The notes under the pieces: generated by a model | What the model was told of the DNA's origin: nothing | The model's database searches: none | What the model saw: the letters and a program-made list of their open reading frames with translations, nothing else | Assembly: GCA_036630325.1 (NCBI GenBank) | Contig: CP142729.1 | Location: forward strand, 496,001-560,000 | Origin: Vairimorpha necatrix | Taxonomy: Eukaryota | Reading direction: 5' to 3' | DNA: 64,000 nucleotides | Part shown: in pieces, positions 18,049-53,956 of the stretch | Layout: every line of letters begins with the position of its first letter | Numbering within the stretch: position 1 is the stretch's first letter | Position numbers and translations under genes: made by a program

Positions 18049-19775
18049 GGGTACCCGTAAATTCGCCTACAGGCGAATTTACGGTTTTTCGCCAAAAGTT
18101 CAAAAATGGTTGTTTTTCGCCAAAAATTTTGCCCATAAAATTTTTCCTTTTTTCGCCGAAAATCTACCCTTAAAAAAATGAACGACAACTTTGAAATTTT
18201 TAAAGGTCAACGTGGGGGGCAAAATCTTATCTATGAAGATCAGATATACACTTTAGACTACAATAAGGACGGCACTAGGCGATGGAGGTGCCGTAATAGG
18301 TCTTGTAGAGGTGCCATTACAATGAATGAACAAAACGAAATCGTTTAAAAAGTTATTCATTCACATGAACCAGTACCTGAGAAATGCATGTTTAAAAGAA
18401 CTTTTAAAAAAATAAAAGAACAAGTTGCTACAAGTAATGAAAACTCATTAGAAATAATAAAAAAACAACTCCCAGTATTGTCAACCAGCTTAGATATTAC
18501 TAAAATGCCTTCCATAGAATATTTAAGAGATACAATCAAACGAACAAGAAATTCAAGACTCGGATTTATAACTGGTTGCATTATGGATATACCCGAAGTC
18601 TTGCAAGTAGATTCTAAAAAAATCGTTTTCTTAGGTTTGATAGTGGTATGCAGGATAATGATAGATTTATAATATTTTTTTCAAAATTCAAAAAAAGTAG
18701 GATTGAAAAAATAGACACGTTCGTCGTCTATGGAACGTTTAAATCTTCTTTTCAAGTATTTTACCAAATTGTCGTCTTTCATGGACATATATTTGGCAAA
18801 AGTTTTCCATACATTTATATTCTACTCAAGGGAAAAAGTGAAAGGTCATATTCTAGAGCCTTCGATAAATGCAAGGAATTAGTTACTATGAATGTTGAAA
18901 ACTTTGTGACTGATTTTGAGAGAGGATTGGTCAATGCATTACGAATATCTTTCCCTGAAGCAAACTTTAATGGATGCTTGTTTCATCTTGGGCAGGCAGC
19001 CTATAAAAGAGTCGGGGCAATGGAAGACATAGAAAAGTTTAAAAATGATTCTAACTATAATCTAGTATTCAAAAGGATTCTTAGATTAGCTTTTGTGCCA
19101 AGACGAGATGTTCCGGGTTTTATGAAGATATTAAGAAATTTATACAAGATAATTCAATTACAACCACAGCTAACTTTCAGTTGTACTTTGAAAATAATTA
19201 TTTAGTTTCCCATGTAACAAGAGAAGATAATGGTGGGAGAGCTGTCGACAATATAAATTTTTGGAATGTATTTGATAGTTTAAAAAATGAAATTTCTCGA
19301 ACTTCTAACAATGCAGAAAGCTGGAATAGAATCATCAACAAGAGAATGGAGACAAGAAATACAAATATTGCTCTTTTTATTTCAAGAATACCCGATTGTG
19401 AAGAAATGGATATATATAATCTAAAACGTTATAAAAAAGAATTATTTGAAGCTAAAAAAACCAAAAAAGCGGAGGAAAAAATTAGAATAATCGTTAAAAA
19501 TTATAAACATTATTCTCGTGAAGAGTACATGAATGCTTTACTGCAACACGTGAATTTCAAATGCGAATAAGTTAATTCAATGAACCTATTTTTATTATAA
19601 ATGCTTTTTTTATAACCAATAAATTTTAATTAAAATTATAATAAAGCTTTTCAAATCTTTTATTTCTTTCTTAATACCAATAAATTTTTTTTGTATTTTT
19701 TGGCGAAAAAACGAGCAAATTTTAATTTTTGGCAATAGCCCGTAAATTCGCCTACAGGCGATTTTACGGTTACCG
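18049..19775 (+). mobile_element. Mutator-like (MULE) DNA transposon, full length, inactivated
   Basis: TIRs GGGTACCCGTAAATTCGCC.../...GGCGATTTTACGGTTACCG, perfect 9-bp TSD ATAGAGGGC (18040-18048 and 19776-19784), and internal transposase remnants. Confidence 0.95.
18178..19570 (+). pseudogene. MULE transposase with N-terminal FLYWCH-type zinc finger, disrupted
   Basis: ATG 18178 follows ACCCTTAAAAAA. WRCRNRSCRG...HSH finger is interrupted by TAA at 18346. MULE motifs YGTFKS (normally DGTF), VTDFERGLVNAL, GCLFHLGQA and RTSNNAESWN. Two frameshifts near 18620-18660 and 19130-19190. Confidence 0.9.
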
Positions 19776-25465: not shown

Positions 25466-26340
25466 GGGGTATTAGAAAATAATTTTTTATAGTAAAATTT
25501 AAATTAATTTTATAAATTAAAATTTAACTACAAAATATTTAAAAAGACTATAATTTTATAATATTTTTTTAATTACGAAAACGATAACATATTTATATTA
25601 TGAAAGATTTTTAATTTAATATGAAATTAGACGTCTTGTTTTTTATTTAGAAAAAAATTATAAAACTGTAGGTTTTCGAGAATTTGAAATTTACAAACGA
25701 CAATTTTTAATCTATTTTTTAAAAAAATTTGACGTTATAAAAACGAGTTTTCGAAATAATAAAAATATGAAATTAGATCATTCTAAGTTAATTATATTTA
25801 TGTAAGATGTTTCCTTAAACAATCATCATGTTTTTATGTTTCTGTAAATTAAAAAAATCATGTTTTTATATATTTTATTGATTATTCGAGATCAAATGTA
25901 AACATGACTCTGCCATTATATTTATTATGATAAATTAAGCAACATTTTTATAATGATTATTTTTATAATTTTTAAAAGCAAACTGCTAAAACTAAATTCA
26001 TTATAATGTCGAAGAAAGAGTACTATTAATCCTCGCATTTTAGAGTGGTAATTTTTATTTTTGCACCCAAAGTCGCAATTCAAGAAGGAACAAGAAATGG
26101 ACAGAAAAGCTGACCATTTTTAGTATTAAGAATGAAAATTATCCCCTTTATATGCAAATTATGAATTTAAATTCGTTTTCCTACTAAACCATACTTAAAG
26201 ATCATATTTGATCTAATTTATAATTTCCGTTTCACGCTACATAAACATTCGAAAAATAAAATATGTGTTTAATTGTCCCTCCCTAAAGTATCAATAATTT
26301 AAACCATTCTTGTTTAATAGTGCATTTTTTTTATTTTATA

Positions 26341-26843
26341 ATAGTGTATGCTGTCCCGTTTTGAAAATGGGATTTAAATGTTTTGCAAAAAAAAATGTAC
26401 CTCTAACCTCTAGTATGATTATTTTTTTTTAGATTTCCATTTTAGGAAGAGCTGATTTCAAAATGAGATGGTATGATTTTAGAAACACTTTTTGAGTAAC
26501 ATTTAAAGAGTAAAATGAAGTTAAAAATACTTTTGAATCTTAATGAGATTATTTTGAGGACCATTAAAGCTCTACTTTGGCACTTATTGTTCAAAATCTT
26601 TATTGAAAAAATATTTTTGCGATTTTTTGTGGAAGGGCTTGAAAATTCACAAAAACGATTCTGACGATATTTTTGTAATAAGTTTAAAACAGAAAACAAG
26701 GTTTCTTATATTGTAGTTTACGCAATCATAATTACATAATTGATTTATAATTTCACATTTTATTTCAAATTGAAAAAGCTGACTTTAGCCAAGATATTTT
26801 AAAAAAGAAAAAGAGGGGTGAAAAATAAAGTCTATTTGTATGA
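26341..26843 (-). mobile_element. Degenerate non-autonomous Helitron copy
   Basis: On the + strand GTATGCTGTCCCGTTTTGAAAATGGGAT, AAAAACGATTCTGAC and AAAAAGAGGGGTGAAAAA match the 50070..51626 units; termini mutated. Confidence 0.75.
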
Positions 26844-27502
26844 AATAGTCAACATTTACTGTTATAAAAAAAGATTAACTAGATCTATTATTTATTGTTT
26901 TTTTGTCCTTTCGGAAGAAAAGATAAAAAAGGAAAATTGTGGGTTCTCAAAAAATACCATAACAATGTAAATAATAAAAAAGTCAAACGTTGTTATAGTA
27001 TACGATTAAAATATTGTTAAATACTTTGCGCGATTTTTACATGCAAAATTTTCATTAATTTAATAATAGAAGTCAAAAAATGATTTTTTTTTTCTCGTTT
27101 TTTTATATAGGAAAGATATATAGATTAATGTTATAACTTTTCTGCAAAAAATTTATGCAGCGTAATCCTTTTCGAGTGAACTTTTTATAATAATTCTTAC
27201 TGCATTTTGGTAAATGTAAAAAACACAGCAAGAAGCAAGCATTTTACTTGATTTTTATAATATTTTTTAACATGTTCATTAGCTATGAATTTGTGCGTAT
27301 ATTATGACATTGAATTGTATTTAAATTCATTTTTCTTTTAAATAAAACAAACAAATGATCTAAAAAACATATTATATAAAAAGCGATGTAATTATAGGCA
27401 ATATTTATTTCATCTTTTATTCAAAATTTATTTATGATTTTGAGAAAAAATTAATATACGATAAAACAAGTTACCTTATATAATTTTAAAATTATTGCCC
27501 CA

Positions 27503-28999
27503 ATGATGGTTTTGAATATCTTCTTAATTGTTTTCTTAGCAAACGCTACCGAAAATTTGTCAAATAAACTACTCAATATTGTAAATAAAATGAAATTAAA
27601 TAAACAATATGACGAATTCGACATTTTAAAAACTTATGAAATAGATTATATTTCCTATAATGATACAAACTTAGATATAGATAAAATTGAATTAAACAAT
27701 AATGTGACACAAACAGAAATTATCATAAGCAATTATGAAGATACTATTGATGAATGTATAGAAATGTTATACAACAATAAAAATGTAAAACAAGGCCATA
27801 GAATACTCATTTATGACAAAAATCAATATAATTTTGATAATTATAAAAGGCTTATTGATAATTTAAAAGAATACAATTTACAGAATAAGTTACAGAAAAA
27901 TACTATTTACTACGAAACGTTCGCTGAAAAAAATAGTCTGATATATGATTGCATTTTTAATGACATTCAAGATATTAATTATTTGAAAAACAATCGCCCT
28001 TACTTTTATTATTTATTCTATCAATGTAATGGAATTTATTATTTCTTTAATATAAATATTAGAGAACTTGAACCTCAAATTATTTTTAAAAAACATCTAG
28101 AAAATCATTTTAGAGTCAAGAATTATGATGTACGACTTTTAACATATTTTTTAAATCATTCTGATTTTTATGATTTTAACGAAATTTACGGAATTCCTCA
28201 ATTTATGAAAAAAGAAACACTCGAAAAAAATGATATAGATAAACCAGAACTTATAGACAGTTTTTCTCTTCATTATGAAGAAGATGTTATAATATATAAA
28301 CATCAATCAAATACTACTGTATTTCTACATACGAAAGAAATAAAAAAAAATACCAATGATGCATCTAAAAAAATAGTTATTAGTAAAATTCAGTTTGAAG
28401 ATCTAAAAAGATTAGTGCTTTTTATGGATACAAATAGAAAAAATGTTGATGAAATCAACATGTTATATAAAATAATAATTAAAAATTATCCAATAGAAAA
28501 AATATTTGAAAATATTTATAGAAATAAAGATACCGCGATTTATATTTTTGTGAATGAATTTCGTGCCTCTTCGTTGTTAATGAGTAAGGATGAATTTAAC
28601 ATTCTTGTTTCAAATACGAATGTTTTTGACAAAACTATTATATCAATTTCAGGAATGAAAAAAGATATAGAAAAAAAAGTAAAGAATTTTATTCAATTTA
28701 TAACATACGAAAATAACTATAGTACTTATATGATAAAAATAATTATTATTTTAGCATTTGAACAAATAATTAACGAAAATAAAATAGCATTAGATATATT
28801 TAAAACGATAAAAAATATTGTAAATATCATCAACGAAAATAATAAAAAAAATCTATATAAAGAAAACATTGATTTGGTTTATATTTTTGATGAAATTTTG
28901 AGGTATAAAGAAACTATTACTCAATCTGTTCAGGATACGTGGGAGGATATTTTTAACGAATTTTTGGCGTTTGAAGTGAAAAAAGAAAAAAACAATTAA
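27503..28999 (+). CDS. Orphan family A protein (498 aa), signal-peptide-like N-terminus
   Basis: GCCCCA before the ATG; leader MMVLNIFLIVFLANA; full-length similarity to 241..1734. Confidence 0.9.
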   Translation: MMVLNIFLIVFLANATENLSNKLLNIVNKMKLNKQYDEFDILKTYEIDYISYNDTNLDIDKIELNNNVTQTEIIISNYEDTIDECIEMLYNNKNVKQGHRILIYDKNQYNFDNYKRLIDNLKEYNLQNKLQKNTIYYETFAEKNSLIYDCIFNDIQDINYLKNNRPYFYYLFYQCNGIYYFFNINIRELEPQIIFKKHLENHFRVKNYDVRLLTYFLNHSDFYDFNEIYGIPQFMKKETLEKNDIDKPELIDSFSLHYEEDVIIYKHQSNTTVFLHTKEIKKNTNDASKKIVISKIQFEDLKRLVLFMDTNRKNVDEINMLYKIIIKNYPIEKIFENIYRNKDTAIYIFVNEFRASSLLMSKDEFNILVSNTNVFDKTIISISGMKKDIEKKVKNFIQFITYENNYSTYMIKIIIILAFEQIINENKIALDIFKTIKNIVNIINENNKKNLYKENIDLVYIFDEILRYKETITQSVQDTWEDIFNEFLAFEVKKEKNN

Positions 29000-29168: not shown

Positions 29169-30218
29169 AAAAAAGAAATTTCTATTCTGATATATAAGGT
29201 CTTAATATGGAAAGCTATATAAGAGATTAGCTTTCTCTCCAATAAATTCTAAGTTTGATATTTATTAAAAATAAAACATAAAATGATGGATTTGTAGCGC
29301 TAAGCCGAAGTTTATAAACCAGAAGAGTCAATAAAAATCATACAAATATCAATTATTTAAACAGCCGAGCGTTTAGGGTTGCAGCTCGTACCACATATTA
29401 TTTTATTAAATTCTAAAATAAGCCTAAAATATGTATATAAAATACATTAAGAATATTTCTATACCAAATTAAGTATTAGAACGATTGTCTATGATGTCAA
29501 AATCGCTCATAATGCATTCTCGATTAGATATTTGTGGGGCATTTATAGTATAAAATAATCTATTTAATATAGAAGAATTATCAAACTTATCAGATCGATT
29601 AAACACTGATTTATGCAAAGATGATAAGCCTAAGTATATCTTTATGAAATAAAAATATAATTATCAGAAAGCATGAAAACGATACGAACAACATCATAAT
29701 AGATGAAAGGGTTGTATACGTCGTTATCTCATACTTACAGATTTCAACTCATTTTAACTATTTATTTTTATGTTTTATACTGAGGATTTGCCTGCAAAAA
29801 AATGAAGCTTAAAAACTATGCATAATAGCTAAATACCCTCTGAATAAATTTTAATCAGTTTGTGAATTATCTTAAAGCTTTTTCACATCGTTAGAAATGC
29901 AAAGAAATTTACTACCATTTACTCCTTAGAAACAACGTTCTAAATACAATAACTATTTTATTTCCGTCAGTAGTGTTTCATCTAATCAGAGTTTAAATTT
30001 TTGAATTTGTTATATATAACTTTATCACAACATGTTTAGTTATATATATAATCCACACTTCTGTAATCAATAAATAAATTAAAGCGTTAGTAAGCAATAC
30101 ACTTAGTTCTTTAAAAAAAATACTTTAAATTGCTTTAGAATAATTTATATTATATTTTCTGTCGTTTATAAAATTATAAAAAAAATATAAAAATAAAGAA
30201 GAAAGCAAAATTTTTTTT

Positions 30219-32657
30219 TGTAATGAAATAAGGTATATTTTTTTTTCATTATTGGGGTTAGAAAATATAAGAATATATAACATCCCCCCTCCAAGACGGT
30301 TAGTCTCCTACGTCATCATCAACCCTAAGCAGATCTTTAAGTCATAGTGCCTCTTCTTAACTAACGTCCATTCATTAATTTTACTACATAAGAATCTTCG
30401 GACACACAATCCTAATCGTCCCAATATCCAAAAACCTACCTTTTTTATACTTATTAGACCCCCTTAAATTTTCACTCTTCGCAACTCGCACTCTCTGTCC
30501 TTCGACGAACTTGTCTCTATATCTCTTTTAAAATCGACTACTATAATCTCCTTCTGGTCCACTTCTTAGAATTACATTGCCCGTATTATCTTTAACTGCC
30601 TCAAATGGTGTGCATCACAGACCTTCATGGTAACTATTATTATAAATCTCAAAGGCCTTCATAACTCTTTCTTCAAAGCTATTTTTGGGATTCATTTTTA
30701 AAACAGATTCTCTCAACGTACCAATAACTCTTTCAACTCTCCCATTGCTTTTATGTGATTCAATACTGGTCTTTCTGTGAGTTATATCCAACTTTCTGCA
30801 TAACTCTCGAAATTCCTTATTTGCAAATTCTCTTCCATTGTCCGATATGTTTTTTTCTGGTCTTTTATCATTTCTACACAAATTTTCTATAAATCCAGTT
30901 ATCGAGCTAGCACGCTTTTCTTTCAACACGCAACCCCATGAGACTCTCGTATGGTAATCAATGACTACTAAAACGAATTTCCCTAAATCTATATAATCGA
31001 TTAAATCTATTGCCACCTTTTTAGGTATCTACTTGTCGCAATAAAATCGCATCCTCCTGATTTTTTCCTATTGTATTTTTGGCATTTTCACATTTTTTTA
31101 TCATCATCTTTATATCTTCTTTAATTCCTGGCCAATAATAGTCAAACTTCATAGCATAATAGACACTTCCTAGTCCTCTGTGGGCCTGTTCTTCGTGGTA
31201 CCTCTTCATTAACTCTAACCTATCACCTATTGCAGGTATTTCCGCTCTACGACCAGAATAAAAATTCTAGTACTCCTTGTCTTCGACTTTCTCAACATGC
31301 TTTAACCATTTTCCCGCTATCTGTTTCTCAGTTCTTTGTCTAATCACTTCTCTCTTTGGTTCATTTACCTTATGAATTCTGCTCAATGCATCAGCAACAA
31401 CCATCTGATCGGGTTGCCTGTACTCGATTTCAAAATCAAACTCTTGGATCATCTCTATCCACCTGTTAATCCTATATTATTAAAAAATGGCTGTCTTCTT
31501 ATTTCTGCTAAAGCCTTATGATCAGTTTCAACCTTAAACTTTCTTCCTCTCAATTCATACTCAAACTTTTTTATGCCCCAATATACAGCGTACATCTCTT
31601 TCTCGCTAATTCCGTATCTAGTTTCAGTCGGAGTAAATTTCTTTGATGCCCATTGTACCGACACCCATTCCTCTTTTTCATTTTTCTGCATAAGTACAGC
31701 TCCCATACCAATATTACTCGCATCCGTTTTTAATAAAAATTCTTTCTCGCAATTAGAATCCTCAATTTCCCTAAATTCTTAAGCACTTTTTTCATATTCT
31801 CAAATTCAATATCCAACTCCTCAGTCCAATTCCAACTTTTGTTTTTCCCTCTTAAGCAATCTGTCATGTGTATCGTTTTCTCTGTCTAGTTCTTTATAAA
31901 TCAATGAACCAACCACTTAATCCTATAAATCTTTTTGTCCGTACCATTTTGCGGCTTCGGGAACTCTATTGTTTAGTTTATTTTCATATCAGATGGCATC
32001 ATATCTTGCCCATTCAATCTTGTCGTCTCATAATTTCTCTTCTTAATATATTTTATCTCTCTAGTTCGTTCCCGTGGTATTTATGGTCTATCTTCTATTG
32101 TTTCCTTTGCCTTATGCTGCCGTATTTCTAGAATATCTTCCATCGCTGCTGCTACTGTCCTCTTGATATATATTCTCACATTATTATTTATTCCTTTCCT
32201 ATCTGTATCTATATTAACATCTATTACTTTTATGTACTAATCATTTAAAAAACATCTCATAGACCTCACATACTGTCTGCCATGCTCTTTTTTCTTATAT
32301 ATATTTCTTTAGTTAACTTCTTTGTGACTTCTTCAATCATTCTAAATCTCTCTTCTCCATCTTCATAATCTTTATCAATCTCTTTTAGATGTGTTCCTAT
32401 TATGTCATGATTATGTTTTAAATTTATATTCCAAACCATAAAATTTTTCAGCTCATTGCTTCTCTTTTTGAAAAAATTTTCTTAAAATCATCATCGTGTC
32501 AACCCTCAATTATTTTGATCTCATACATAATAATCTCATATTCTTGCAATAATTTTCTGGCCTCTTGAACACGGCCAACACTTGTTAACTCGGATTTGGT
32601 ATCGCCACATGTGTATATATCCATTATTAGGGGTTGGAAATATAAGAATATAAAATA
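30219..32657 (-). mobile_element. Older Ty3/Gypsy LTR retrotransposon, internally deleted and degenerate, with ~50-65-bp LTRs
   Basis: Fragments of RNase H (KTDASNIGMGAVL, SEKEMYAV, ETDHKAL, VADALSR) followed by integrase (HEEQAHRG, AIDLI, SDNGREF, SNGRVER). Short direct repeats at 30219-30282 and ~32610-32657, PPT GGAGGGGGA next to the former, TGGCGATACC PBS-like site next to the latter. Protease and most of RT not found. Outer boundaries approximate. Confidence 0.85.
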
Positions 32658-33639
32658 TTTGATCTACAAATTAAAAAGTTTTTGGATCTTCTTTAGGAGG
32701 CAAAATTTTTAATTAATTACCCTATTTTAAATTTTAAAAAAATGTAAGCATCACAAAATAAAAAGTTCTAAGGTAAACTGAATAACACATGTTAACAAAT
32801 CATTTAAATTTTTTTATATACATCATAAAAAAACCATCTATCCATCTAGTATTATACTATATTTTAAAAAAAATTTGATTGATTTTTTGACCCTCTTTTC
32901 GTGTTATTTGTAACAAAATAACATAATATAAGCACTTATTATATTACAATGATATCTTATATAAGTTTTAAGAGCTTTTTGAAAATCATAAGTTGAAGAT
33001 CATGTGTTAATAGATTCTTATTTGGAATGTTGTTTTAAAAATTAGTTATAAAATATCGATTAAATCGATTTATAGAAAATATAGTTCTTTACATAGAAAA
33101 TTACAAAAAAACATTTAACTATAACATTTCGTATTATAAATGTCAAATATTTTACTTAAGAACATATAGAAGGTAGCTCACTAAATTTTATTGAATGATT
33201 TGAAACAAACACTGCATCCAACGTTCGCTTAGGAAATAATTTTTAAAGTTTCTTAAAATTATGATCTCTCACTTTTACATTTTAATTCTACTTCAAAAAT
33301 AAGTTACAAAAAAAATGAAAAAACAAATCAAGTTAATCTTGTTTCGAAAACAAGAAAGCATATTTTAGTTTTATATCTAAAAAAAAATTATTTTATTTTT
33401 TATCCCTAAAACTCAAAAAATGAAGGTAAATAATGTGTTGTCTTATATATATAAATATTCGTTAAATGTTCTTAATGTCTCAGACAATTTTATACCAGTC
33501 CCACTATTTAGACATTTCTTATAATCATTAGTTTCCTTAAAAGGAATTTTTTAAATTCTTTCTTTAGAAACGTAAACAAAAAAAAATGAAAAACAAAATT
33601 ATAAAAAGGAACTTAACAAAGTAAGAATATTTAATGAAT

Positions 33640-35070
33640 GTTATTGCCCGGAGCAATGGCCAGAAAATGCTGACTTGAGAAGGATACTAAAAAGATTTTA
33701 AAAGAAGATCAGTAGTATTTCCATGAAATTTGTATGTTAAAAGCTTTTTAATATTTGAGGTATGAAAGAAAAATTAATTACATTCGATAGACAAAAAGTT
33801 TGGAAAATTTAAAGGCTGGTCTTTTTTAACTAGGTTGGTGGAAAAACAGAAAGAGAAGCTTTTGGGGTAAAGCAAAATAATTTCTTCTTTTTGGGATGTA
33901 ATTAATGGTATCACAGAGCTCCCGCTGAGATTAAAAGTAGGCCTATATGGATCATTAAGATTGTTTGTTACCACAAACAACACTTCAAAATTTTCCCACG
34001 TCTTAAATTGGCTTCCTGGACGGGACAGATTGTTTACATTACTGCAAACAAAACTCTACGACTAAGCCCATAAAATATAAGAGAATTTTGAATGCTGCGG
34101 TATTTTTCAATATAGAAATCTAGTAACTAGACAAGTTATTAGATCAATCGTTTCAAAAAATCAAAGAGAAAGATATATTACTAGCTTTTTTTGCTCTCCG
34201 ACTATATCACGAACACAATGAAGCTTTATAATGGTTATTAATTTGTAGATTTTTTTAAAAAATAATTTGGATGGTATCACTTTTGATGAAACATGTTATA
34301 GTCAGGAATGCCTTTAAAACATTGTTTAGAACGTATGGTTCATATTTTATACTTCACATGATTACGACAGAGAATTATTAAATCAAGTACTCTTCGATTT
34401 TGTCAAAAATATGAAATAAGACATGTGAAGGGGATAGCTAGATGTCAATGGATATAGAGACAGATAGAACGATGTAATCAAACAATAGAGTGGATGATTG
34501 CATCTACCTTGAGAACAAAAAAAATTTAGGCAATTGACCGAGGTACAAAAAAAAGTTTCTGGTCTATTAATAATTAAAGACACTCTACTACGAGACAACC
34601 CCCATTCTCTCTAATGTTTGTTAGACTCATTAGGGTCATAATGGATGAGTCTAGAATTACTGGCATTCTGAATTAAATATAGCAAAAATCATGAACAACA
34701 ATAAGATGAAGAAAGGTTATCCGATGTTCTAGATGCAAATACTAATGAAGATATTGCTTAACTATATGCTTTCTATAACACAAACCTACTTAAAAAATAT
34801 TTTTTCATGGAGTAGCTAGAAACATAATAAATTATTACAAATAGAATGATACAAAGAAGTAAATCTAGAAATGATTTCTTAGAGTATAAAATAGGATAAA
34901 TGGTTCTTAAAAGACCTTAATTGGACAACAACATTAATACCAGAAGACATTCTCTTTGAACATTTAGATGCAGAAATCTATGTTATTAACAGACATAATA
35001 CAATTTATTAAGTAAAATTATGCAGAGAAGATGGAATTAAAATCATATTAAAAAAAAAAACTAAGAGATC
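33640..35070 (+). pseudogene. Eroded retroviral-type DDE integrase/transposase (Ginger or KRBA2/SCAND3-like)
   Basis: Ordered fragments across frames: LPGRDRLFTLLQTKL, RQVIRSIVSKNQRERYI, LFRTYG, FCQKYEIRHVKG, IERCNQTI, RHSTTR..PFSLMF. No RT or RNase H seen upstream. Boundaries approximate. Confidence 0.6.
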
Positions 35071-35128
35071 CAAGGTTGCTAGGTGATGAATAAAGTACTA
35101 AAAAAATCATTTACTTTATTATTATATT

Positions 35129-35198
35129 TGTCGAATGTTCCTTTATTTACGAATTGCATGGGGGTGAAAATATATAATATTTATAGAAGGATACGACA
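35129..35198 (-). repeat. 3' LTR (70 bp)
   Basis: Identical by eye to 38605..38674; abuts the PPT. Confidence 0.95.
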
Positions 35199-35211
35199 CC
35201 TCTCCCCCCCT
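35199..35211 (-). other. Polypurine tract AGGGGGGGAGAGG overlapping the pol stop codon
   Basis: 13 consecutive purines on the minus strand directly before the 3' LTR; TAG at 35212-35210. Confidence 0.9.
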
Positions 35212-38200
35212 AAATTGAAGTATCTGCTTTAACTCGTGTTTTGTTAAGCCTGTATACTTTTCCATTCTTTTTTACCACATAGGCATCGGGTAAAATTATT
35301 TCTGTGATCACGTATCCATCTTCCCAATTGCACTTGAACTTCCCGCTTTTGGTCTCACGATATATTAAAACTTTATCGCCCACGTTTAGCTTTTTCGCCA
35401 CCTCTACTTTCCCTTTCACGATTGCTTTTTTGTACTTTTCGAAGTTTTCATCGCGCTTACTCTTCGTTTCCTCCGCTGAGAATGTCACTTCTTCCTTGTC
35501 TAGCGCTTTGTCTACAGACAGCATCGGCAATTTATTCTCCCTTAACATGAACGGCGATGTTCCTATGCTCCGATTATAAGACAGGTTGAGGCATCTCGTG
35601 GCTTCTGGAAGCTTGTTCTTCCAGCTTACCCTTCCGAAATCTGTAATTTTATTTAGTATCTTCATTAACGTCTGATTCGCTCTTTCTACTGCGCCTACAG
35701 TTTCGTGATGTTCTGGTGAACTGTATTGCCAGTCAATACCGTTCTTTTCGGCCAGGTCTTTGATGTCAGAATTTATAAATTCTAGCCCGTTGTCAGTCAA
35801 GATTCTTTCTGGAATGCCGTGTTTCTCGATAATCAATTGCTGGATTAATCCCATTATTTTCGACCCTGTTTTATAGTTAATAACAGCCGTCTCGACCCAT
35901 TTAGAGTAGTGGTCAATAGCAATGAATATGAAGCTGTTTTGACCCGAAGTGTCGCATATGCGTCCTATGAGATCTATCACCCATATTTGGTTCGGCCTTT
36001 CTGATCGTATAACTTTGTTTTTTTGTGTTTCGTAATGGGTATCCCGATTTCAAGCACGTTTTACACTTTTCTACGTGTTCCTTGATGTCCTTATGCATTC
36101 CTGCCCATTTGTACCTCTGTGAAATCATGAAGCTCATCGTACTAGCGCTAGCATGTCCAACGTCTAGATGGTAGGATTCTAAGATCTTCTGTCTGTCTTC
36201 ATCGCTTGGTCCTGTAGCTTCGATGATATTTATATCTTTCTCTGTCGGGGTTTGTCTGCTTAACCCGTCTGCTCCATTAACCTCTCCTTTTATGTAGGTT
36301 GATTGAAATGCATACTCCTGCAACTTCATTGCCCACCTCAGCAATCTACTGGTAGGGTTCTTAGCTTCCCATAGATAAGTCAGCGCTTTGTGGTCCGTCT
36401 TCAATATGAACTCTCTACCCAGGAGGTAGTGTCTATAGTTCTCGATGCCTTTTACAACGGCCAAGAGTTCTTTGTCTGTTGTAGAGTAGTTCTTATGGGC
36501 TTTCTCTAAACTTTTGCTGAATGCACTTACGAAGTGCTCCTTCCCATCATCTCCAATCTGTGAGAGGATCGCGCCTATTCCCTGCTCTGACGCATCCGTA
36601 GTCAGTATAAACGGTTTCCTGAGATTAATCTTGTATCTTATTGTCTCTTCTGTGAGAAGTCTCTTTAGATCTTCGAATGCCCGTTTCTCCTTTTTGCTGA
36701 GAGAAATACTCTTAACACTTCGCTTTGACTCTCCTTTAAACAGTTCGTAGAGAGGGGCTGCTATCGCTGATAAGTTACGGATGAACTCCCTACAGTAATT
36801 TATGAGCCCAAGAAACGACCGTAGTTGAGCAATATTCGTCGGCTCCTTATACTCGTTTATGGCTTTGACCTTCTCTGGGTCCGGTTTGATCGTCTTGTTT
36901 GTTACTATATTCCCTAGAATTTTAATTTCTTCTTTGAAGAAGTGGCACTTCTTCCTGTTAAGTGCGATTCCTGCTGCCTTAAGCTTACCCAATACGATTT
37001 CCAAGTGCTCACGGTGTTCCTGTGATTTTTAGAATAGATAATAATGTCATCCAAGTATGGTATGACGAATTTTCTGTTTTCTTTCACAAAAATCTTATCC
37101 ATAGTTCTCTGAAAAGTAGCAGGGGCATTACATAGCCCAAACGGCATCCTGTTAAATTCATAATGTCCTCCTCTCCAGCTGAATGCTGTCTTCTCCTTGT
37201 CTACTTCTTCAAGGGCTATCTGATAATATCCCGACGTAGCATCTAATGTCGAAAAGATAGTAGCGTCAGCTAGATCGTCGAGAATTTCATCAATTCGTGG
37301 GAGGGGGTATTTATCTTTGACTGTTATCTTGTTGAGCTCTCTGTAATCTATACAGAGCCTGATCGACCCATCAGGTTTCGTTACCGGAACAACTCTACTG
37401 TTCCAGGGGCTCCTACTATTTCTTATTACGCCCAACTGCAAGTTCTTCTTGATCTGTTGTGTGATTTCCTCTTCAAAGTGCAGAGGGATCTTTCCATTTT
37501 TCTGGTAAATTGCCTTCGCTACTGTTGTCTCGATTTGATGTTTCCCCATGTTACAAAGTGTAAGCTCTGAAATTTCAGTTTTGAACATGTCATGGTATTT
37601 CTCTTCGATTGAGATGTAATTGACTTTGTTAATCAGTGAGCCTTTCTTGACTGTATTGGCGAATTTTCTGATCAGTTGTTCCAGTAATATGGGGTTCGTT
37701 CGTATAGCGTCAACTCCTAAGATTATGTAGTCCGGTGTCCGTTCTGTGACGTAAGGGCTGAAAGTAATTGAAGTGTTTTCCGTCCTAAAATTGATATTTA
37801 GACATCTTCCTGTAATCTCCAATTGTGTCCCTGATGCTGCTCGTATGATCGTTGAAGATCTGGTAAATCTGATATTTGTCCCTTCGAGGACTCTTGCGGG
37901 TATCAGGGAGACATCAGCTCCGGTATCAATTAATGCTCGATGTCGTTTACGATTGAATTCTACGTTTATGTAGCAAGGATTAGTGAAACAGCTGTTGATC
38001 TTGTAGTTTTCTATGGTGTAGGGTATATTTCCCTTCTTCGATGGTCCGACCTTCAAAGTCCTGTTATCTAGTGTCTCGTCCGTATTAGTCGTGTTACTTT
38101 TCATAGGGAATGCTATCCAAGAAACTTCCTCTGTGCGCCTCAGGAATTCACTCCAATCTTGGCATTGTCTAGCAAAATTATAAAGAATTGATTTGAGGAC

Positions 38201-38635
38201 TGAAGGAGACTTCTTGATTACTATGAGGCTGACTGCTTTGTACTCCATTGTTTGTTGCTCTATAAGGGAGTTTCCTTTCCTGCAGAAGTCTATGAAAGCC
38301 TCTAGGTTGCCAAATTGTTGCGGTTTAACAAACTCGTCTAGAGTGGCCAGAGTTTTCTGTGAACTGTAAAATCTCAATTTTAGACTCTTAGTAACCTCTG
38401 CCAGATCAAGTTCGGACACCCGTTCAAATGCCATTGCTATCCATGAGAGAGCTGGCCCCCGTAGACCCAGGCAGATAAGTCTGGCGGTCTGATCTTCTGT
38501 CAGTCCCATAACCCTCGCCGTGAACGTTGTGTCACGCAACCATGTATTTATATCCTCTTCCTTCTTTCCACTGAAGCAGCCAACAGTTTTTATCGCTGTC
38601 GCCATGTCGAATGTTCCTTTATTTACGAATTGCAT
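35210..38635 (-). pseudogene. gag-pol polyprotein (1,141 aa if repaired) with two compensating frameshifts
   Basis: ALIDTGAD (protease), RMPFGLCNAPATFQ and YLDD (RT), TTDASEQG and TDHKAL (RNase H), HLDVGH..CKTC, IDLIG, TDNGLEF, VERAN (integrase). The span of 3,426 nt is an exact multiple of 3. A 1-nt loss near 37020 and a 1-nt gain in the T run near 36018-36024; either may be a sequencing error. Confidence 0.9.
38594..38604 (-). other. Primer binding site TGGCGACAGCG (inside the gag frame)
   Basis: TGG immediately follows the 5' LTR end, complementary to tRNA CCA. The next base implies a G discriminator (Ser is a candidate, unverified). Confidence 0.7.
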
Positions 38636-38674
38636 GGGGGTGAAAATATATAATATTTATAGAAGGATACGACA
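38605..38674 (-). repeat. 5' LTR (70 bp) containing TATAAA, CCCCC-ATG and AATAAA
   Basis: Minus strand TGTCGTATCCTTCTATAAATATTATATATTTTCACCCCCATGCAATTCGTAAATAAAGGAACATTCGACA. Confidence 0.95.
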
Positions 38675-39004
38675 ATATTTTTTTTTTTTATTATCCCTTC
38701 AAAATTATTCCCCTCAAAAATTCGAGACCAAATTTCTAGTTCATCGTAAACGACCATTTATTTGTACTATTTTTTCGATTGATCCCTCGCTATAGATTTT
38801 TTTACCTCTGGCTATCGTTTCGAACTGTGACAATAAATAAAAAAATTTTAAAAATGTTTTCGCTGTTGATTTCATACTTACTATTATATTTATTCTTTTA
38901 AATATCAAATTTATTTTAAATTCTTTTTTTTTTCGAATTAGAAAATCATAATAAACAAACGATAAATAATAGTTTATTTCGTTAATTTTTTTCTTTAGTT
39001 TAGA

Positions 39005-39266
39005 AATTTGTAGCACAGCTCGTCCCAGTATCGCTAATGGGATTTAGCTCTTTATAGACAATAGTTTCTGTGCACTTGTTTTCGTATTTCAACTTCAAAA
39101 TGTTAGCTATGATGTACTTAAACTACACCACTTCTTCACAACCGCCATATTTGATTGTGCGCTTACAGCTCTAGCCACTTCTTCCTGTCCTGCATCCTAT
39201 TTATTTTATCCTCGTCATCGTTCCCAAGAGATGGACTTGGGGGTCTTCTTTAGCACAATAAACTAG
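39005..39266 (-). mobile_element. Tc1/mariner transposase remnant, copy 1
   Basis: KRTIKYGGCEEVV (compare Tc1 TVKHGGGSVMVW) and ELNPI..YWDEL (compare DLNPIENLW); nucleotide similarity to 40687..40941. Confidence 0.7.
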
Positions 39267-40002
39267 AAGTTTTCTGAAAAATAACAAACTTTATATGTTA
39301 TTTTACAATGTTTGATGTAAACTGTTTTTTCTTTAACAGTCTGCGAAGAATTTTTACTAAAAATTTGTTTATTAGATAAACATAACCTTCTAAGCAAGAT
39401 TTTCTATTATGTTTATGGGGTTAAAAATGTGATATTATACCTTCGAAAACATAATCAGAATAAAGGAAAGAATATCTAGATTATGCTGCTCTCTGCTTTC
39501 AGGGAAATCTGAGGACCACTGGAGAGCTGTCAGTTGACTTTGAAATTCAACCAATAAATTCTCAGATGAAAATGCCTTTTTATACTCAAAAATATTATAG
39601 TTATTTTGTGCGTTTTTATTTTTCAATTACAATGTTTATTCTTTTAATTTTTTTAGAAATGAAAATCATATATAATAAATCCCAAAACATAGACAAAATT
39701 AATTTGCGTTAAAATTTCCAAGTTGATTCAGTAGTGATTTTAAATCATTTTATGAGAAAATATCTTACAACAATTATGTTATTTCAATCGGCATATTGAA
39801 CATACCGAAGCTTACATCCAAATGAGATCAATAAAGAAGGCTAAAGAGTATCCCATTTGAACATGGTAGAGATTCTCCGAAACAAATCTGTAACTAAGAA
39901 CATAGTAGAGGTAGATAAAGATGGTGTGTACAGATAAAGTGCGTGGTAATGGGGTTAAACGGAAAAAATAAACCAAACAATAGCTTCGATAAAAAATTCA
40001 TG

Positions 40003-47880: not shown

Positions 47881-50069
47881 TAAAAAGGGTATAAATTAAT
47901 TTTTTTATGAATTCTTCATTTAGCTTATGTGTATAAATATTTTAATTATCAATAACATTATTTAAATAAGGTATTTACAATTTCCAATACTTAGCAATTT
48001 TTTCTCCAAAATCTTATTTAAAGGTTTTTTGGTTGGCTTAAAGTGACATTAAATCTAATATCATAAGAATTTAACTCATTAATAGTTAATTTAAAGAAAT
48101 TATATTTTTTCGTTGAGCATCAGCTTAAATATTTTAAATAATTATTCTATTATTAATTTATAAATATAGTAAAAACAAACTGAATGTGTTCTTTTACTTA
48201 ATTGTTTTGACAAATTATGTCATTAACATTTTTTTCTACATTTTTAGTGAAATGAAAATTTGACATCAAATATGCGAAAATGGCGCAAAGTTGACTCACC
48301 ACAATAAACTATATCTCTATATAACAAATGGTAAATAATTGTTAAATTTGTATTTAAAACTATATATAAATTGGTTTCTTTGTTTTTTTAAATTATACGT
48401 TTAAAAGTTCCAAATAATTGTAAATTAATGCTTTTTACATTTTTTATCTTCTTACAAAAATTATATCTTAGTCTTATTATATTGATTTATAATTTCTTCC
48501 ATTACTTTTTATTTATTAACTACAATAAAATAAATGAAGTTTTTAGTTATTTTTGATTCATAATCCTATACTCCTTATATTATTATTATTATTATAAAGT
48601 ATGTATTTTGTCGAAAAAAAATGTATGTGTTTAGTTTAATGCGATATAATTTCAATGTTCTACATAACAAATGCTTATAATTTAAACCATAACTAAAAAA
48701 TACGAGAATCTTAAGATGATATTTAATTACAACAATGCAGCAAAAAAATAACATAAATTTGAATTATTTGCAAAATAACCAAGATTTTGTACCTAATCTT
48801 TAATGATTTATGTTAATTCTATATCATTAAAAAAATGCAGGAATTATCATAAAAATATTTGTTTTTGTATGGATACAAATGGGTAGAAACTAGAATTTTA
48901 AATCATAAATCAACTAAAAAAAATTAAAAAAAGTGTCTGAATGTTTTTTACTTTAAACGAAAAAGGTGATTGTATTTATGCCCCTACTTGATGTAGTAAG
49001 TTGTATGAAATTATTCAACTTTTAGAGTAAAATAAATTTTCTGCAAATATTGTTTACCGTATTGGTTTAGTTATAACTCAAATTTATCATTTTTGTTCAA
49101 ATTCTATAATCATTTGTTACAAATAAATTTTAAATATGCTAAATTTTCATTAGTTTGTATGAGTTTTCAAATTCTTAGAACAATATACAAAAGTACAAAA
49201 GCAAAAACTATTTTTAAACATTCATTCATATGTTCCAGATATAGCCCTTATCCAACATAATTATGAAAGAACCAACTTTAGCTATTTTTTATATAAAATA
49301 TGCTTCTCTGGCTTTTATTCAAAAAAAAAAATAACTGATTCAATAATGCAATATAATTCGTATTTCTAACAAATTTTATTTTTCAATTGATATAATACAT
49401 GATAATTAATTGGTTGAGTTAATTGTTTGCTTTATAGTTTTTTTTTGTGTATTAAATTATCGTAGTCAAGTATTAGTTTTTAATAGTAAAGCCATATTTT
49501 TACTCCTGTATTTTTGATAGTAATAATTTAATCTAAATCACTCATATATTACTAGAAAATAATGACTCTTAAATACCAGTTCATTCTAATAGGCATTTTG
49601 CTTAAATCTTGTAATTTTTATTATACTTTTTGGTTTTTACCTCTTTTTAAATACATAGTAAAAATAATGAAACATAAAAACTTAGGTTACTTAGAAGAAA
49701 TAGGAAATAAAAAATTAGTTTTAAGTTTCTGTACGTAATTTTACAGAATGTTTATATTTAATTGCCGTCAGTTGTTTTCAGATGTGTTACGGTAAAACTT
49801 TATAATGTTTTTGTAATAATAATAATGATTCAAAGTTTCATGATCAAACATGTGTTCTTTCAAATACTTTTCATATACACCACAGAAGTACTCTTATAGG
49901 CCGTTAATGTTTTTTTTTAATGTTTGATTTCTTTTAGACACGGGGTGATAATACTTTTCGAAAATAATTATGTTCACAATTCTTAATTCATAATACCAAG
50001 ATCTCCTTATAGGAAATATTTTTTTAAAGAATGAGGTCTGACTCTGTCTTTGATTTATTTTATAGTAAA

Positions 50070-51626
50070 CTAGCGTATGCTTTCCCGTTTTGAAAACGGG
50101 ATCTAAAAGTTTAGTTTGATAATATGTCTTTCATCCTCAAATTTTGTAAAGTTTCCATTTTGGATGATTACATTTGACAGAGTTTAGACATGATTTTCAA
50201 GAATACTTTTTAGTAACATATAAGGAGTAGTGTTGCTTTAAAACATTTAATAATCTCAATAGATAATTTTGAAAACTTCTTAAGCTCAGTTTTTGACACT
50301 TACATTAATTTCTTCTTCGTTATTTGTTTTTAAAATTTTTCCTGGAAGGGTTAAATAAATTCTAACAAACGATTCTGACAATATTTTGGAACTGAGTTTA
50401 ACAAAAATAATAATCAAAATTAAAATGTATTAACACATAGTATACATACTTACAATAATCATATCGAAACATTAGATATAAATTTGATATTTTTAATGCA
50501 CAATAAAGGGAAAATAAATAGTTTAAAAATTTCAAAGTCACAAAAAAGAGGGGTAAAAAATTAAATAAAATTCTTTTATATATATGATGACTAGCGTATG
50601 CTTTCCCGTTTTGAAAACGGGATTTATTTATTTTGTTGTGGCATTTACTTCCTCCTTTGTTTTTTTTGATCTTCCATTTTTATTTTGAATAAGAAAAGGA
50701 AAAAGCATAATTTTTAAAAATACTTTTTAGTAACATATAAGGAGTAAAGTTGAGCTAAAACATTTAATAATTATAATGAGATAATTTTGGAAACTTCTTA
50801 GCTCATTTTTGACACTTATATTCAAAATCTTCATTTGTCACTTGTTTTTACAATTTTTCGTAGAAGGGTTAAATAAATTCTAAAAAACGATTCTGACAAT
50901 ATTTTGAAATCGAGTTTCACAAAAATAATAATCAAAATTAAAATGTATTAACACATAGTATACATACTTACAATAATCATATCGAAACATTAGATATAAA
51001 TTTGATATTTTTAATGCACAATAAAGGGAAAATAAATAGTTTAAAAATTTCAAAGTCACAAAAAAGAGGGGTAAAAAATTAAATAAAATTCTTTTATATA
51101 TATGATGACTAGCGTATGCTTTCCCGTTTTGAAAACGGGATTTATTTATTTTGTTGTGGCATTTACTTCCTCCTTTGTTTTTTTTGATCTTCCATTTTTA
51201 TTTTGAATAAGAAAAGGAAAAAGCATAATTTTTAAAAATACTTTTTAGTAACATATAAGGAGTAAAGTTGAGCTAAAACATTTAATAATTATAATGAGAT
51301 AATTTTGGAAACTTCTTAGCTCATTTTTGACACTTATATTCAAAATCTTCATTTGTCACTTGTTTTTACAATTTTTCGTAGAAGGGTTAAATAAATTCTA
51401 AAAAACGATTCTGACAATATTTTGAAATCGAGTTTCACAAAAATAATAATCAAAATTAAAATGTATTAACACAAAGTATACACACTTACAATAATCATAT
51501 CGAAACATTAGATATAAATTTGATATTTTTAATACACAAATAGGGTAAAATAAGAAGTTTAGATTTTACAAAATTACAAAAAAGAGGGGTAAAAAATTAA
51601 ATAAAAGTTTTTTATATATATGATGA
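50070..51626 (-). mobile_element. Head-to-tail array of three non-autonomous Helitrons (50070-50590, 50591-51108, 51109-51626)
   Basis: On the minus strand each unit runs TCATCATATATATAAAA...TCCCGTTTTCAAAACGGGAAAGCATACGCTAG. CTAG|TC junctions have no spacer, and the array is flanked by A and T. Confidence 0.92.
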
Positions 51627-53956
51627 TACATTTATAACATATTAGCTTAGAAATATACTTTCCTCATACAATTGATATGAACTGTTTTAAAGTCGTAGTT
51701 TTAGATATATTTTTTAAGCGTTGCCATAATTTTGTTTTTCTAAAAAACCTTTATCTAAGTACATATCTATATTTAATGGTTTATTTACAAGATTCGAGTT
51801 TTTTTATATATTTATGTTAAATATAGTACATTAAAAAATCAACACTTATGATATCTCCCCGGATTTTAATTAGCGTTTTTATTTTTTAAGAGTTGAAAGT
51901 AACCATGTATGTAATATTTAATTATAATTAAAGAAATTATTTGAATACCAATTTAAAATCTATTTTCAAATATAGTATTATTTATTTTATAAAGTCAAGA
52001 TTTCTAAATTTTTGTCTCTATGTTAATGACAAAAAAGAAGTCAGTTGTAACTGACACATATGTTCAGATTGCAATGATTAAGATCATCCAGAGTTATATT
52101 ATTAAATCTGAGGCAAGGCAGCTTTAAAAGACTGTAGTAAGGCGAATAATTGAGTTTGTCATCGATAGTGTACATAAACACTGCAACGATAAGTTAGTAA
52201 AAGCTATTGATGAACTTTTATAATTACGTCATATGATTTATTGTATTACCTGATCTAGGTTTTATGATGCTTTTTTTTGTGCTAAAATAATACAGTAAAC
52301 ATTTTTTTATTAATATTACTAAAAGAAATTTTTCTAGTAAATGCTAACACTATATTATAATTTCTTAACCAAGGGCTATATACTATTTATAAAGTTTTCA
52401 TTATACGGTTTAAAACATTTAAAAATATAGTTAGTTCAAAACAATAGAATCTCTTTTCTCTAGATGTTAGTATTAAAAAAATTAAATGGACAATAAACAC
52501 AATGGAATTACAAAATAAATATTTCCTCTGTAACGAATTTGTATTAACATATAATGATTTCAACCACTATACTTTTTGAAAAAAATCATCATTCAAATGC
52601 AATTGGTCTTGCTACTACTTTAAACAAAAATTCTTAAAAAAACAATATACAAGTGAATACTATGTTGTTCGATATTTGCTATATACCCATAATCTTATTT
52701 ATACATGTATTTATACTAATAAATAATTTACACTCTATACCAATATGAATCTTTATATTTTATTTACATATTTATAGATTCATGGTCAATTTAGAACCCT
52801 AATTCGTAAATTGATCATTATTTTGGTTTTTTTATCGCTTACTATATCATCAAAAATAAAGGTATGCTTGTTCGCACCCATTATCTTTAAGGAATCATTT
52901 TCGAAATCTCTACTCTTTTGTGGTCCGAAAGATGGTGCTAAGTTCACCTAGCGGGCACCAATGAATATACAATTAAACTTGGTCAGTAACTATACCCCCT
53001 CAGATTAGCACGTAAAGTATAATTTTTGTTTTGTATCCATAAATTTGCTGAGTTTATTTTATGAGGGCTGTACACGGGTTTTTTATAATTTGTTACTCCG
53101 TGTCATTCCTGTGAAAACTATTCATACAGTAAGATTTCGATTTTATGCTTCAAAATGATAATTTAATTGTAGCTTTACGGGTCATTTAAATATTATAATA
53201 TAGGACATGTAATTATAAGTGCCATCTTGATGGTCTTAACATACAAAATTTTTTATTCGAATTGGATCACCTTCTGGTCTTTAGAAACGCATAATACAAT
53301 TTAACTAATATTTTGTTTTTTTTTGTTGGTTTTTGAAAGTCTTTATTGGTCATTTATAACACACAAAGTGTACGTGTCGAGATTTTATGTTCAGTTCTAA
53401 TATAATGTCTATAGTCTGTGAAATTTTTGATCAATTATAGTATTAACTGCAAATACAATGCTTAAAGTAATAAGTAAGCTAATTATTTATCTATACATCT
53501 TCAAAAATGATGATTAATTATGAAGCATATAATTTAGATCCAGAGTTCTTGCTTGAAAAAAAAAATTTAAATAAAATTTGTTATTATATTCACTATATTA
53601 GTTCTAGTTTCATAAAATTTAAGATAACAAAGGACGAAAATTTAAAACAAAATAATAACGAAAAGTCTTTTATTTATTCTTCGCATTCCCTTTTTTTGTT
53701 TAGTATTAACAAAATAACATGATTACTGTTACGTAGAAGTAGAACAGTGACAATTCAATATACAAAAAAATTGAATGAATAATATTTACCATTGTTGTAG
53801 TTTATATGATATTATGTCGACCATTTTAATAATTAATTTACAAACAAATTACAAGACCTGCTCTCGAAATTTAAAGATATGTCAGTAAAATTTCTTTTTA
53901 TAAATTTAAAAATCTGTTTTTTTTTGTTGGAAGTACTGAAAGAAATTAAAGAGTTA

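Follow-up and report, generated by a model that had tools for sequence, protein, structure and literature searches.

Ty3 of Saccharomyces cerevisiae, the type member of the Metaviridae, is a long terminal repeat (LTR) retrotransposon of ~5.4 kb with 340-bp LTRs, a 5-bp target site duplication (TSD), a short tRNA-type primer binding site (PBS), a zinc knuckle in its nucleocapsid (NC), and separate GAG3 and POL3 frames linked through programmed frameshifting. Tf1 and Tf2 of Schizosaccharomyces pombe are Ty3/gypsy elements that encode Gag, protease (PR), reverse transcriptase (RT) and integrase (IN) in a single open reading frame (ORF); Tf1 is ~4.9 kb long, has LTRs of ~350 bp, carries a chromodomain and self-primes from its own transcript. 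Ty1 of S. cerevisiae (Pseudoviridae), a Copia element of ~5.9 kb with the order PR-IN-RT and LTRs of ~334 bp, starts Gag in the 5´ LTR, has its PBS within the gag ORF, and lacks a knuckle. The mag element of Bombyx mori has 77-bp LTRs, a length that our literature search did not confirm. Here we analyze a 64,000-nucleotide stretch of the microsporidian insect parasite Vairimorpha necatrix (contig CP142729.1, positions 496,001 to 560,000; hereafter the window), which contains a 3546-bp element with 70-bp LTRs. We are highly confident that this element is a young, now defective Ty3/gypsy (Metaviridae) copy, belonging to a microsporidian clade that encodes Gag, PR, RT, RNase H and IN as one polyprotein.

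Among microsporidia, the Nbr elements of Nosema bombycis were reportedly described by Xu et al. in 2006. Ty3/gypsy elements have been known from this group since that year (cited in PMC2474625), and microsporidian Ty3/gypsy groups with gag and pol fused in one ORF have been reported (Parisot et al., 2014; PMC4202319). Two Anncaliia algerae elements from the supplement of that study serve for comparison (Supplementary File S1, PMC4202319): Consensus_retroA, of 3614 bp, has LTRs of ~169 bp and CCHC knuckles (by eye), and retroB has LTRs of ~215 bp (by eye). The V. necatrix family shares with the elements of Parisot et al. a microsporidian host, a size of ~3.6 kb and a single gag-pol ORF (1141 residues in the intact V. 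necatrix protein P0123, 1153 in the related element L001), and shares with retroA a purine tract that adjoins the 3´ LTR (by eye). It differs in the length of the LTR, 70 bp in the window as opposed to ~169 and ~215 bp (a comparison made outside the polyprotein tree described below), and in having none of the CCHC knuckles found in retroA Gag. In a survey of 11 clades, mean LTR lengths ranged from 174 to 695 bp, with the training LTRs of Mag C the shortest at an average of 174 bp, and the conserved LTR modules were the inverted termini, TATA and AATAAA (Benachenhou et al., 2013; PMC3601003). Like the short LTRs of the Mag group, the V. necatrix LTR keeps the inverted termini and AATAAA, but its 70 bp fall far below those means.

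A Ty3/gypsy element with 70-bp LTRs

The window contains two direct repeats of 70 nt, at 35129-35198 and 38605-38674, that are identical at 70 of 70 positions; the number of such matches expected by chance, from shuffled sequences, is 0. The repeats open with TG and close with CA, and have inverted termini of 5 nt (TGTCG/CGACA), the terminal-repeat structure of Ty3/gypsy elements. On the outer side of each repeat lies ATATT, read on the plus strand (35124-35128 beside the 3´ LTR and 38675-38679 beside the 5´ LTR), a duplication within the 4-6 bp range of TSDs for which the probability at a given site is ~0.007 with the base composition of the window. Coding capacity is confined to the minus strand, and therefore 38605-38674 is the 5´ LTR and 35129-35198 the 3´ LTR of an element with an internal part of 3406 bp. 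A PBS-like sequence of the TGG type, TGGCGACAGCGA (38604-38593), stands immediately 3´ of the 5´ LTR, and a polypurine tract (PPT) of 13 purines, AGGGGGGGAGAGG (35211-35199), stands immediately 5´ of the 3´ LTR; equivalent purine tracts adjoin the LTR in the related elements L001, L002 and L003. The stop codon TAG of the polyprotein frame (35212-35210) shares 2 nt with the PPT and is separated from the 3´ LTR by 11 nt, and the coding span, from 38635 to 35210, takes up 3426 of the 3546 nt (96.6%). As a separate observation, in the DNA of L002 (positions 3840-3860) the polyprotein ORF extends through the PPT into the 3´ LTR, where it stops at a TAG within the first 8 nt. Similar G-E/D-V/M-S tails were seen in 12 of the 19 relatives that reach the C-terminus (by eye, columns 1401-1440 of alignment A2, with the DNA checked for L002).

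Pfam matches on the three window ORFs and on P0123 occur in the order PR, RVT_1, RT_RNaseH/RT_RNaseH_2, Integrase_H2C2 and rve. On the minus strand of the window these correspond to an aspartic protease with the motif LIDTGADVS (37700-37969; gag-asp_proteas E=3.6e-08, RVP E=1.4e-06), an RT in which YLDD is present (36909-37381; RVT_1 E=7.9e-27), RNase H with its tether (36312-36698; E=7.3e-37 for RT_RNaseH and 1.7e-30 for RT_RNaseH_2), the H2C2 zinc-binding domain of integrase (36045-36203; PF17921, E=1.2e-13), and the integrase catalytic core (35711-36001; rve E=2.2e-10 for the window ORF and 1.5e-13 for P0123). When P0123 was compared with solved structures, Ty3 Gag-Pol (7q5b, E=1.2e-107) matched best, together with Ty3 RT/RNase H (4ol8, E=2.8e-90); next in rank were a polyprotein of caulimovirus type and the Pol of foamy virus. 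The family resembles Ty3 in its closest structural match and in the order PR-RT-RNase H-IN, as well as in the 5-bp TSD and a short, putatively tRNA-type PBS; unlike Ty3, it has one frame in its intact relatives, 70-bp LTRs and no knuckle. A single ORF is also a feature of Tf1 and Tf2, although the window PBS begins with TGG like a tRNA site, and a Pfam search of P0123 at E<=1 gave no chromodomain, the mark of chromoviruses. We rejected assignment to Ty1/copia (Pseudoviridae), which would need integrase upstream of RT.

The region upstream of the protease (38036-38635, minus strand), of which the first 10 codons probably lie within the 5´ LTR, encodes Gag without a zinc knuckle. Its first 200 residues gave only a sub-threshold Pfam match to PNMA (E=0.0072; score 16.2 bits, cut-off 25). 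An AlphaFold model built with 27 aligned relatives has ten helices at a mean predicted local distance difference test (pLDDT) score of 88.1. Its best fold match is the PNMA2 capsid (E=1.3e-3, template modelling (TM) scores 0.45/0.48); domains of the PNMA2, Arc, dArc or Ty1 capsids, among them the C-terminal domain of the Ty1 capsid (CA-CTD), make up 8 of the top 10, and comparison with the Ty3 capsid (6r24) gave TM 0.48/0.57. From this predicted model, we read the N-terminal region as a two-lobed retroelement capsid domain.

The coding span of the window copy is broken. It reads in three pieces, in frame 1 (38656-36917), frame 3 (37028-35916) and again frame 1 (36049-35213), and both P0123 and L001 align to it in three segments in the same succession of frames. 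Aligned with these intact relatives, the copy lacks one base near 37021/37022, at a site (37019-37024) just past YLDD in RT where frame 1 gives way to frame 3, and has one extra base in a run of seven A (36018-36024) in the N-terminal part of integrase, where frame 3 returns to frame 1. In between, ~1 kb is out of frame, covering the end of RT, RNase H and the start of integrase. The window copy is defective and not autonomous, and would move only with proteins supplied by intact copies. Programmed frameshifting, as in Ty3, was rejected as the explanation, both because the frame of P0123 and L001 continues unbroken across the two sites and because the first of them falls within RT. Given that the intact relatives are not shifted at either site, the shifts are mutations, with errors in the assembly consensus a less likely cause.

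If the shifts were consensus errors, this copy would in reality be intact and autonomous. A run of seven A is a typical place for indel errors, the two shifts (-1 and +1) cancel each other, the LTRs are identical, and the copy is otherwise ~99% identical to an intact one. We nevertheless consider such errors unlikely. The genome paper describes an assembly from PacBio HiFi reads (mean quality value (QV) 34) made with hifiasm and polished (PMC10759460), and if the window derives from that assembly, a pair of errors in so short a span (1 kb) would not be expected; the first site has no long homopolymer; and two further V. necatrix family proteins, P0001 and P0124, are visibly degraded gene models, a sign that copies commonly decay in this species. 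Taking the shifts as mutations, the original prediction was right about the identical TG..CA repeats, the TSD, the PBS-like site and the PPT, and in all its coordinates and counts, including the coding fraction and the gap between stop codon and 3´ LTR, as it was in recognizing an LTR retrotransposon of the Ty3/gypsy type that is almost entirely coding. The single gag-PR-RT-RNase H-IN span it proposed has the predicted domain order and length, but is divided among three frames by two single-base indels.

Relatives and the short-LTR lineage

In public databases, the proteins closest to the window element carry the names V. necatrix "endonuclease" and "reverse transcriptase". P0123, one of the endonucleases, is intact at 1141 residues, is colinear with the whole span, and represents a cluster of 10 sequences. 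It begins with MQFVNKGTFDMATAIK, that is, at an ATG inside the LTR. The three pieces of the window copy match it at 94%, 97% and 99.6% identity; by hand count ~11 residues differ outside the shifted junctions, or ~99% identity overall. Based on this identity and on the identical LTRs, the window copy looks young, with the limit that 0 differences in 70 positions bounds LTR divergence only to ~4% (rule of three). The presence of 99%-identical copies, one of them intact, suggests recent activity in a genome of which half is repeats.

A scan of bacterial and archaeal genome records yielded 78 further loci (the L-numbered relatives), which are eukaryote-like contigs binned into metagenome-assembled genomes. 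Among them is L001, a contig of 4011 bp with a complete element of 3590 bp (58-69% protein identity). It has identical LTRs of 75 bp, and a single ORF of 1153 residues that runs from an in-LTR ATG to 9 nt before the 3´ LTR; a second ATG bridges the LTR end and the PBS (TGGCGACGGCGAC). The LTRs of L001 and the window match module by module, from TGTCGTA through an AT-rich TATA region, CCC-ATGCAA and AATAAA to GACA. L002 (46% identity) has LTRs of 176 bp with the same TGTCGTA start and the same 14-nt PBS as the window element. Its last ~70 LTR nt run TATAAATA ... CCC/GGG-ATGCAAG ... AATAAA ... ACA/TGG, as in the window, and the extra length is upstream U3. In L003 (51% identity) the LTR is ~118 bp and again starts with TGTCGTA. 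The TGGCG of the PBS is invariant in 5 of 5 aligned elements. L003 also has an unusual arrangement: positions 850-1060 contain the end of pol, a PPT, a single LTR of ~118 bp, a PBS and the start of gag, in that order, with gag and the remainder in different frames. Two elements in tandem, a junction like that of a 1-LTR circle, or a wrap-around in the assembly could account for this order.

A quick maximum-likelihood tree of 25 polyproteins placed P0123 and L001 as sisters with a Shimodaira-Hasegawa-like approximate likelihood ratio test (SH-aLRT) value of 100, inside a subgroup of 10 rows (91) that includes L002. A microsporidian clade of 20 rows (SH-aLRT 99), with Nosema granulosis, Pseudoloma, Enteropsectra, Pancytospora and Nematocida among its members, stands apart from four outgroup rows (arthropod, fish, nematode and plant) plus L072. 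The latter, with an LTR of at least 268 bp, has a long branch and joins the outgroups, and was therefore set aside as a relative for the trend in LTR length. Between capsid and protease, 26 of 28 relatives have a knuckle of the form C-x2-H-x4-5-H-x4-C, which is absent only from P0123 and L001; LTR shortening and knuckle loss coincide in these two, and thus mark the same small clade.

These relatives bear on whether the 70-bp repeat could be a copy-specific deletion remnant of a longer, normal LTR, a possibility allowed for in the original prediction. The distant relatives with LTRs of ~118 and 176 bp do open with the same TGTCGTA, and the DNA of only one V. necatrix copy was inspected. However, in the established replication scheme a single template gives rise to the two LTRs of a new insertion, and a deletion after insertion would hit one LTR only. 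The window LTRs are a pair of the same length and sequence bounded by a TSD, and therefore the element integrated with 70-bp LTRs. Moreover, its intact sister L001 has LTRs of 75 bp with the same order of modules, so that the micro-LTR is a trait of the lineage. We regard a remnant as scarcely credible: going by the sequences compared, the short LTR belongs to the lineage and is not a deletion in the window copy. In evolutionary terms, the micro-LTR probably arose by loss of the upstream U3 that is still present in relatives, in a lineage that also lost the Gag knuckle.

Many database relatives of 1130-1250 residues lie on contigs of merely 3.4-3.9 kb. A coding density above 90% seems normal for the clade, because the ORFs of these relatives nearly fill their contigs.

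Several observations weigh against the picture of a young copy from a short-LTR microsporidian clade. The window copy itself is unable to encode RNase H or integrase in frame. With up to 3 mismatches allowed, the whole 64-kb window has no third copy of the 70-nt repeat and no other family copy or solo LTR; for other V. necatrix copies, the LTRs are known only through the N-termini that they encode. Matching duplications are lacking at the flanks of L001 (GACTT/AGATT) and L002 (CAAAT/GTTAT), and these small assembled contigs are no proof of clean insertion. The polyprotein tree leaves 10 of its 22 inner branches unresolved, and an LTR length is available for only 5 of its 25 rows. The fold search with the Gag model gave no match at E<=0.001, the best being 1.3e-3, though the ranking of capsids is consistent. 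The window contains no tRNA genes or Rfam matches, and so offers no primer partner for TGGCGACAGCGA. Finally, the element has a G+C content of 41.6% compared with 24.8% in the rest of the window.

This last difference could also reflect recent horizontal arrival from a non-microsporidian donor, for example the insect host, and exchange of transposable elements (TEs) between microsporidia and metazoans has been argued (Parisot et al., 2014; PMC4202319). Yet the closest relatives are all from named microsporidia or on unassigned small contigs, the family is nested in the microsporidian clade, which excludes the rows from arthropods, fish, nematodes and plants, and its LTR has the CCC promoter layout of microsporidia. 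Such an arrival is very unlikely, and we favor a resident microsporidian lineage.

Signals within the LTR and the start of Gag

Read in the sense direction, the 70-bp LTR contains TGTCGTA at 1-7, the TATA box TATAAATA at 14-21, CCCCC at 35-39, ATG at 40-42, AATAAA at 52-57, and CGACA at 66-70. Microsporidian transcripts are reported to have 5´ untranslated regions of <7 nt, with a CCC-like motif directly before start codons and inefficient recognition of AAUAAA (Peyretaillade et al., 2009; PMC2803860). The host genes of the window have the same layout: CCC occurs <=15 nt upstream of the ATG in 7 of 8 ORFs (all non-TE window ORFs of >=150 residues), compared with 3.6% of all 15-nt windows (P=5.5e-10). 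The seven ORFs with this signal start at 1734(-), 15888(+), 25465(-), 27503(+), 44452(+), 47880(-) and 63886(-); this core-promoter signal could help fix gene starts in this gene-sparse region.

Two ATG codons are candidates for the start of Gag. The in-LTR ATG is in frame and open in the window element, L001, L002 and L003. A second in-frame ATG (38603-38605, minus strand) has as its A the last base of the 5´ LTR, and begins the M-A-T-A of codons 11-14, in which the PBS-like sequence (38593-38604) lies. M-A-T is nearly invariant, and in 18 of the 27 relatives aligned the protein is extended N-terminally beyond it (by eye). In L003 and P0003, Leu replaces the boundary Met, so the upstream ATG is needed there. 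We conclude that Gag probably starts inside the LTR, with its first 10 residues LTR-encoded. The Gag start in the 5´ LTR, the PBS within the gag ORF and the lack of a knuckle would then all be likenesses to Ty1.

Alternatively, transcription could start past the in-LTR ATG and Gag at the boundary ATG. The preceding 31 LTR bases would then be a leader, conserved as nucleic-acid signals only (AATAAA, the integrase end and the PBS). Only 26 nt separate the start of the TATA box from the in-LTR ATG, and such spacing, as in many eukaryotes, would put the transcription start at or after that codon, which argues against our preferred start. In addition, the conserved residues "NK" correspond to AATAAA and the conserved "D-M-A-T" to the LTR end plus PBS, and 8 of 27 database proteins are annotated from M-A-T. 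On the other hand, CCCCC immediately precedes the in-LTR ATG as it does host start codons, the upstream frame is open in all four elements and is extended in the majority of aligned relatives, and two relatives have no boundary Met at all. A start at the boundary ATG is thus possible, though we think it doubtful.

With Gag starting in the LTR, the replication cycle could be envisaged as follows. RNA polymerase II would start in the 5´ LTR, directed by the TATA box and the CCC motif, a few bases before the ATG at 40, as the host promoter layout suggests. One polyprotein, of 1141 residues in P0123, would be made from the in-LTR ATG, an uninterrupted frame that is present in both P0123 and L001, with the boundary ATG as an alternative start. 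A tRNA would anneal to TGGCGACAGCGA in codons 11-14 and prime minus-strand strong-stop DNA of only ~30 nt. A yeast tRNA-Ser with a similar end sequence is a lead only. AATAAA would serve as Asn-Lys codons in the 5´ LTR and as the poly(A) signal in the 3´ LTR. The R region would be ~30 nt and U5 close to nil. We infer an R of ~30 nt or less and a nearly absent U5 under either reading of the start codon. Retroviral R regions can be as short as ~15 nt. Plus-strand synthesis would begin from the PPT that overlaps the stop codon, and integrase would join the TG..CA ends, giving the 5-bp duplication that we observe as ATATT. The 70-bp LTR would then retain only the published conserved modules, namely the inverted termini, TATA and AATAAA.

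Significance and genomic surroundings

As a kind of element, and in its compact single-ORF plan, the V. necatrix family was already known; what appears new, judged from the literature and outside Repbase, Dfam and GyDB, is the combination of 70-75 bp LTRs and knuckle loss in one clade. In the literature searched, LTR lengths of V. necatrix or Nosema elements were nowhere described (the tables and figures of Parisot et al. may give lengths), and "LTR" does not occur in De Albuquerque 2020. In the V. necatrix genome paper, "LTR" occurs 0 times in the main text, and the annotation used RepeatModeler at default settings and classed 109 genes as TEs (PMC10759460).

The micro-LTR matters for annotation. 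The default minimum LTR of LTR_FINDER is 100 bp. LTRharvest uses the same default (PMC2253517, Table 1), as the original prediction had stated. Finders set to at least 100 bp would not report the family full-length, and a lower threshold should recover more such elements in microsporidia. The expectation that the element would have been missed applies only to its LTR structure, which seems undescribed, given that proteins of the family are already in public databases. Similarly, of the proposed miniaturized lineage, the short LTR is borne out by the 75-bp LTRs of the sister element, whereas compact single-ORF elements had been published before (PMC4202319). The proposed match to compact gene signals of the host is seen in the CCCCC-ATG, shared with 7 of 8 host ORFs, but not in the genome as a whole, which has 15 Mb per haplotype, is tetraploid, and consists of 28.3% G+C, 50% repeats and 20.8% coding sequence (PMC10759460).

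We raise, tentatively, the possibility that the V. necatrix family and its sister L001 are the smallest coding-competent LTR retrotransposons yet seen, at ~3.55-3.59 kb with 70-75 bp LTRs and without a nucleocapsid knuckle. If so, the LTR would amount to a bare functional set, consisting of the integrase ends, TATA, a host-type CCC initiator, the start codon of Gag and a poly(A) signal that doubles as codons, with the PBS and PPT inside or against the ORF, R of ~30 nt and U5 nearly nil. Intact copies, if active, would set a practical lower limit on LTR content, and finders with a 100-bp minimum would systematically miss a lineage of microsporidian elements. A 70-bp LTR that holds promoter, start codon and poly(A) signal would be a natural minimal LTR. 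Together, the micro-LTR and knuckle loss illustrate how far coding sequence may accommodate replication signals; our findings leave the established mechanism of LTR retrotransposition as it was.

A second Ty3/gypsy element, heavily degraded, lies at ~30225-32672 on the minus strand, ~2.5 kb upstream of the first. Fragments of integrase, H2C2 and RNase H are interrupted by stops. A purine tract, GGAGGGGGGA (30283-30292), adjoins an LTR-like repeat of ~55-60 bp that is 84% identical over the 37 nt found, and the 5´ copy of the repeat has an internal CCCC and an in-frame ATG, followed by TGGCGATACC. With the same signals in this element, the micro-LTR layout therefore occurs also in a different, older family.

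Other features of the window were also noted. A 185-residue ORF at 18648-19205 (plus strand) with a MULE transposase domain (Pfam E=3.8e-12) is probably a DNA transposon fragment. At ~50053-51651, a 518-bp unit is present three times in tandem (85-96% identity), with a related single copy 23.7 kb away (26324-26847). The host ORF at 27503-28999 (plus strand, 498 residues), present at 100% identity in the protein collection, has no Pfam domain and may belong to a species-specific expanded family; its one other relative there, the 48%-identical V. necatrix paralogue VNE69_04041 (P0122), is apparently on the same chromosome. The region from 30000 to 40000, with the two retroelements, is the most G+C-rich part of the window (33-42% compared with ~24%). 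In another microsporidian, Ty3 elements were reported in 2026 to be concentrated in G+C-rich, gene-poor regions that are putative centromeres (PMC13174016).

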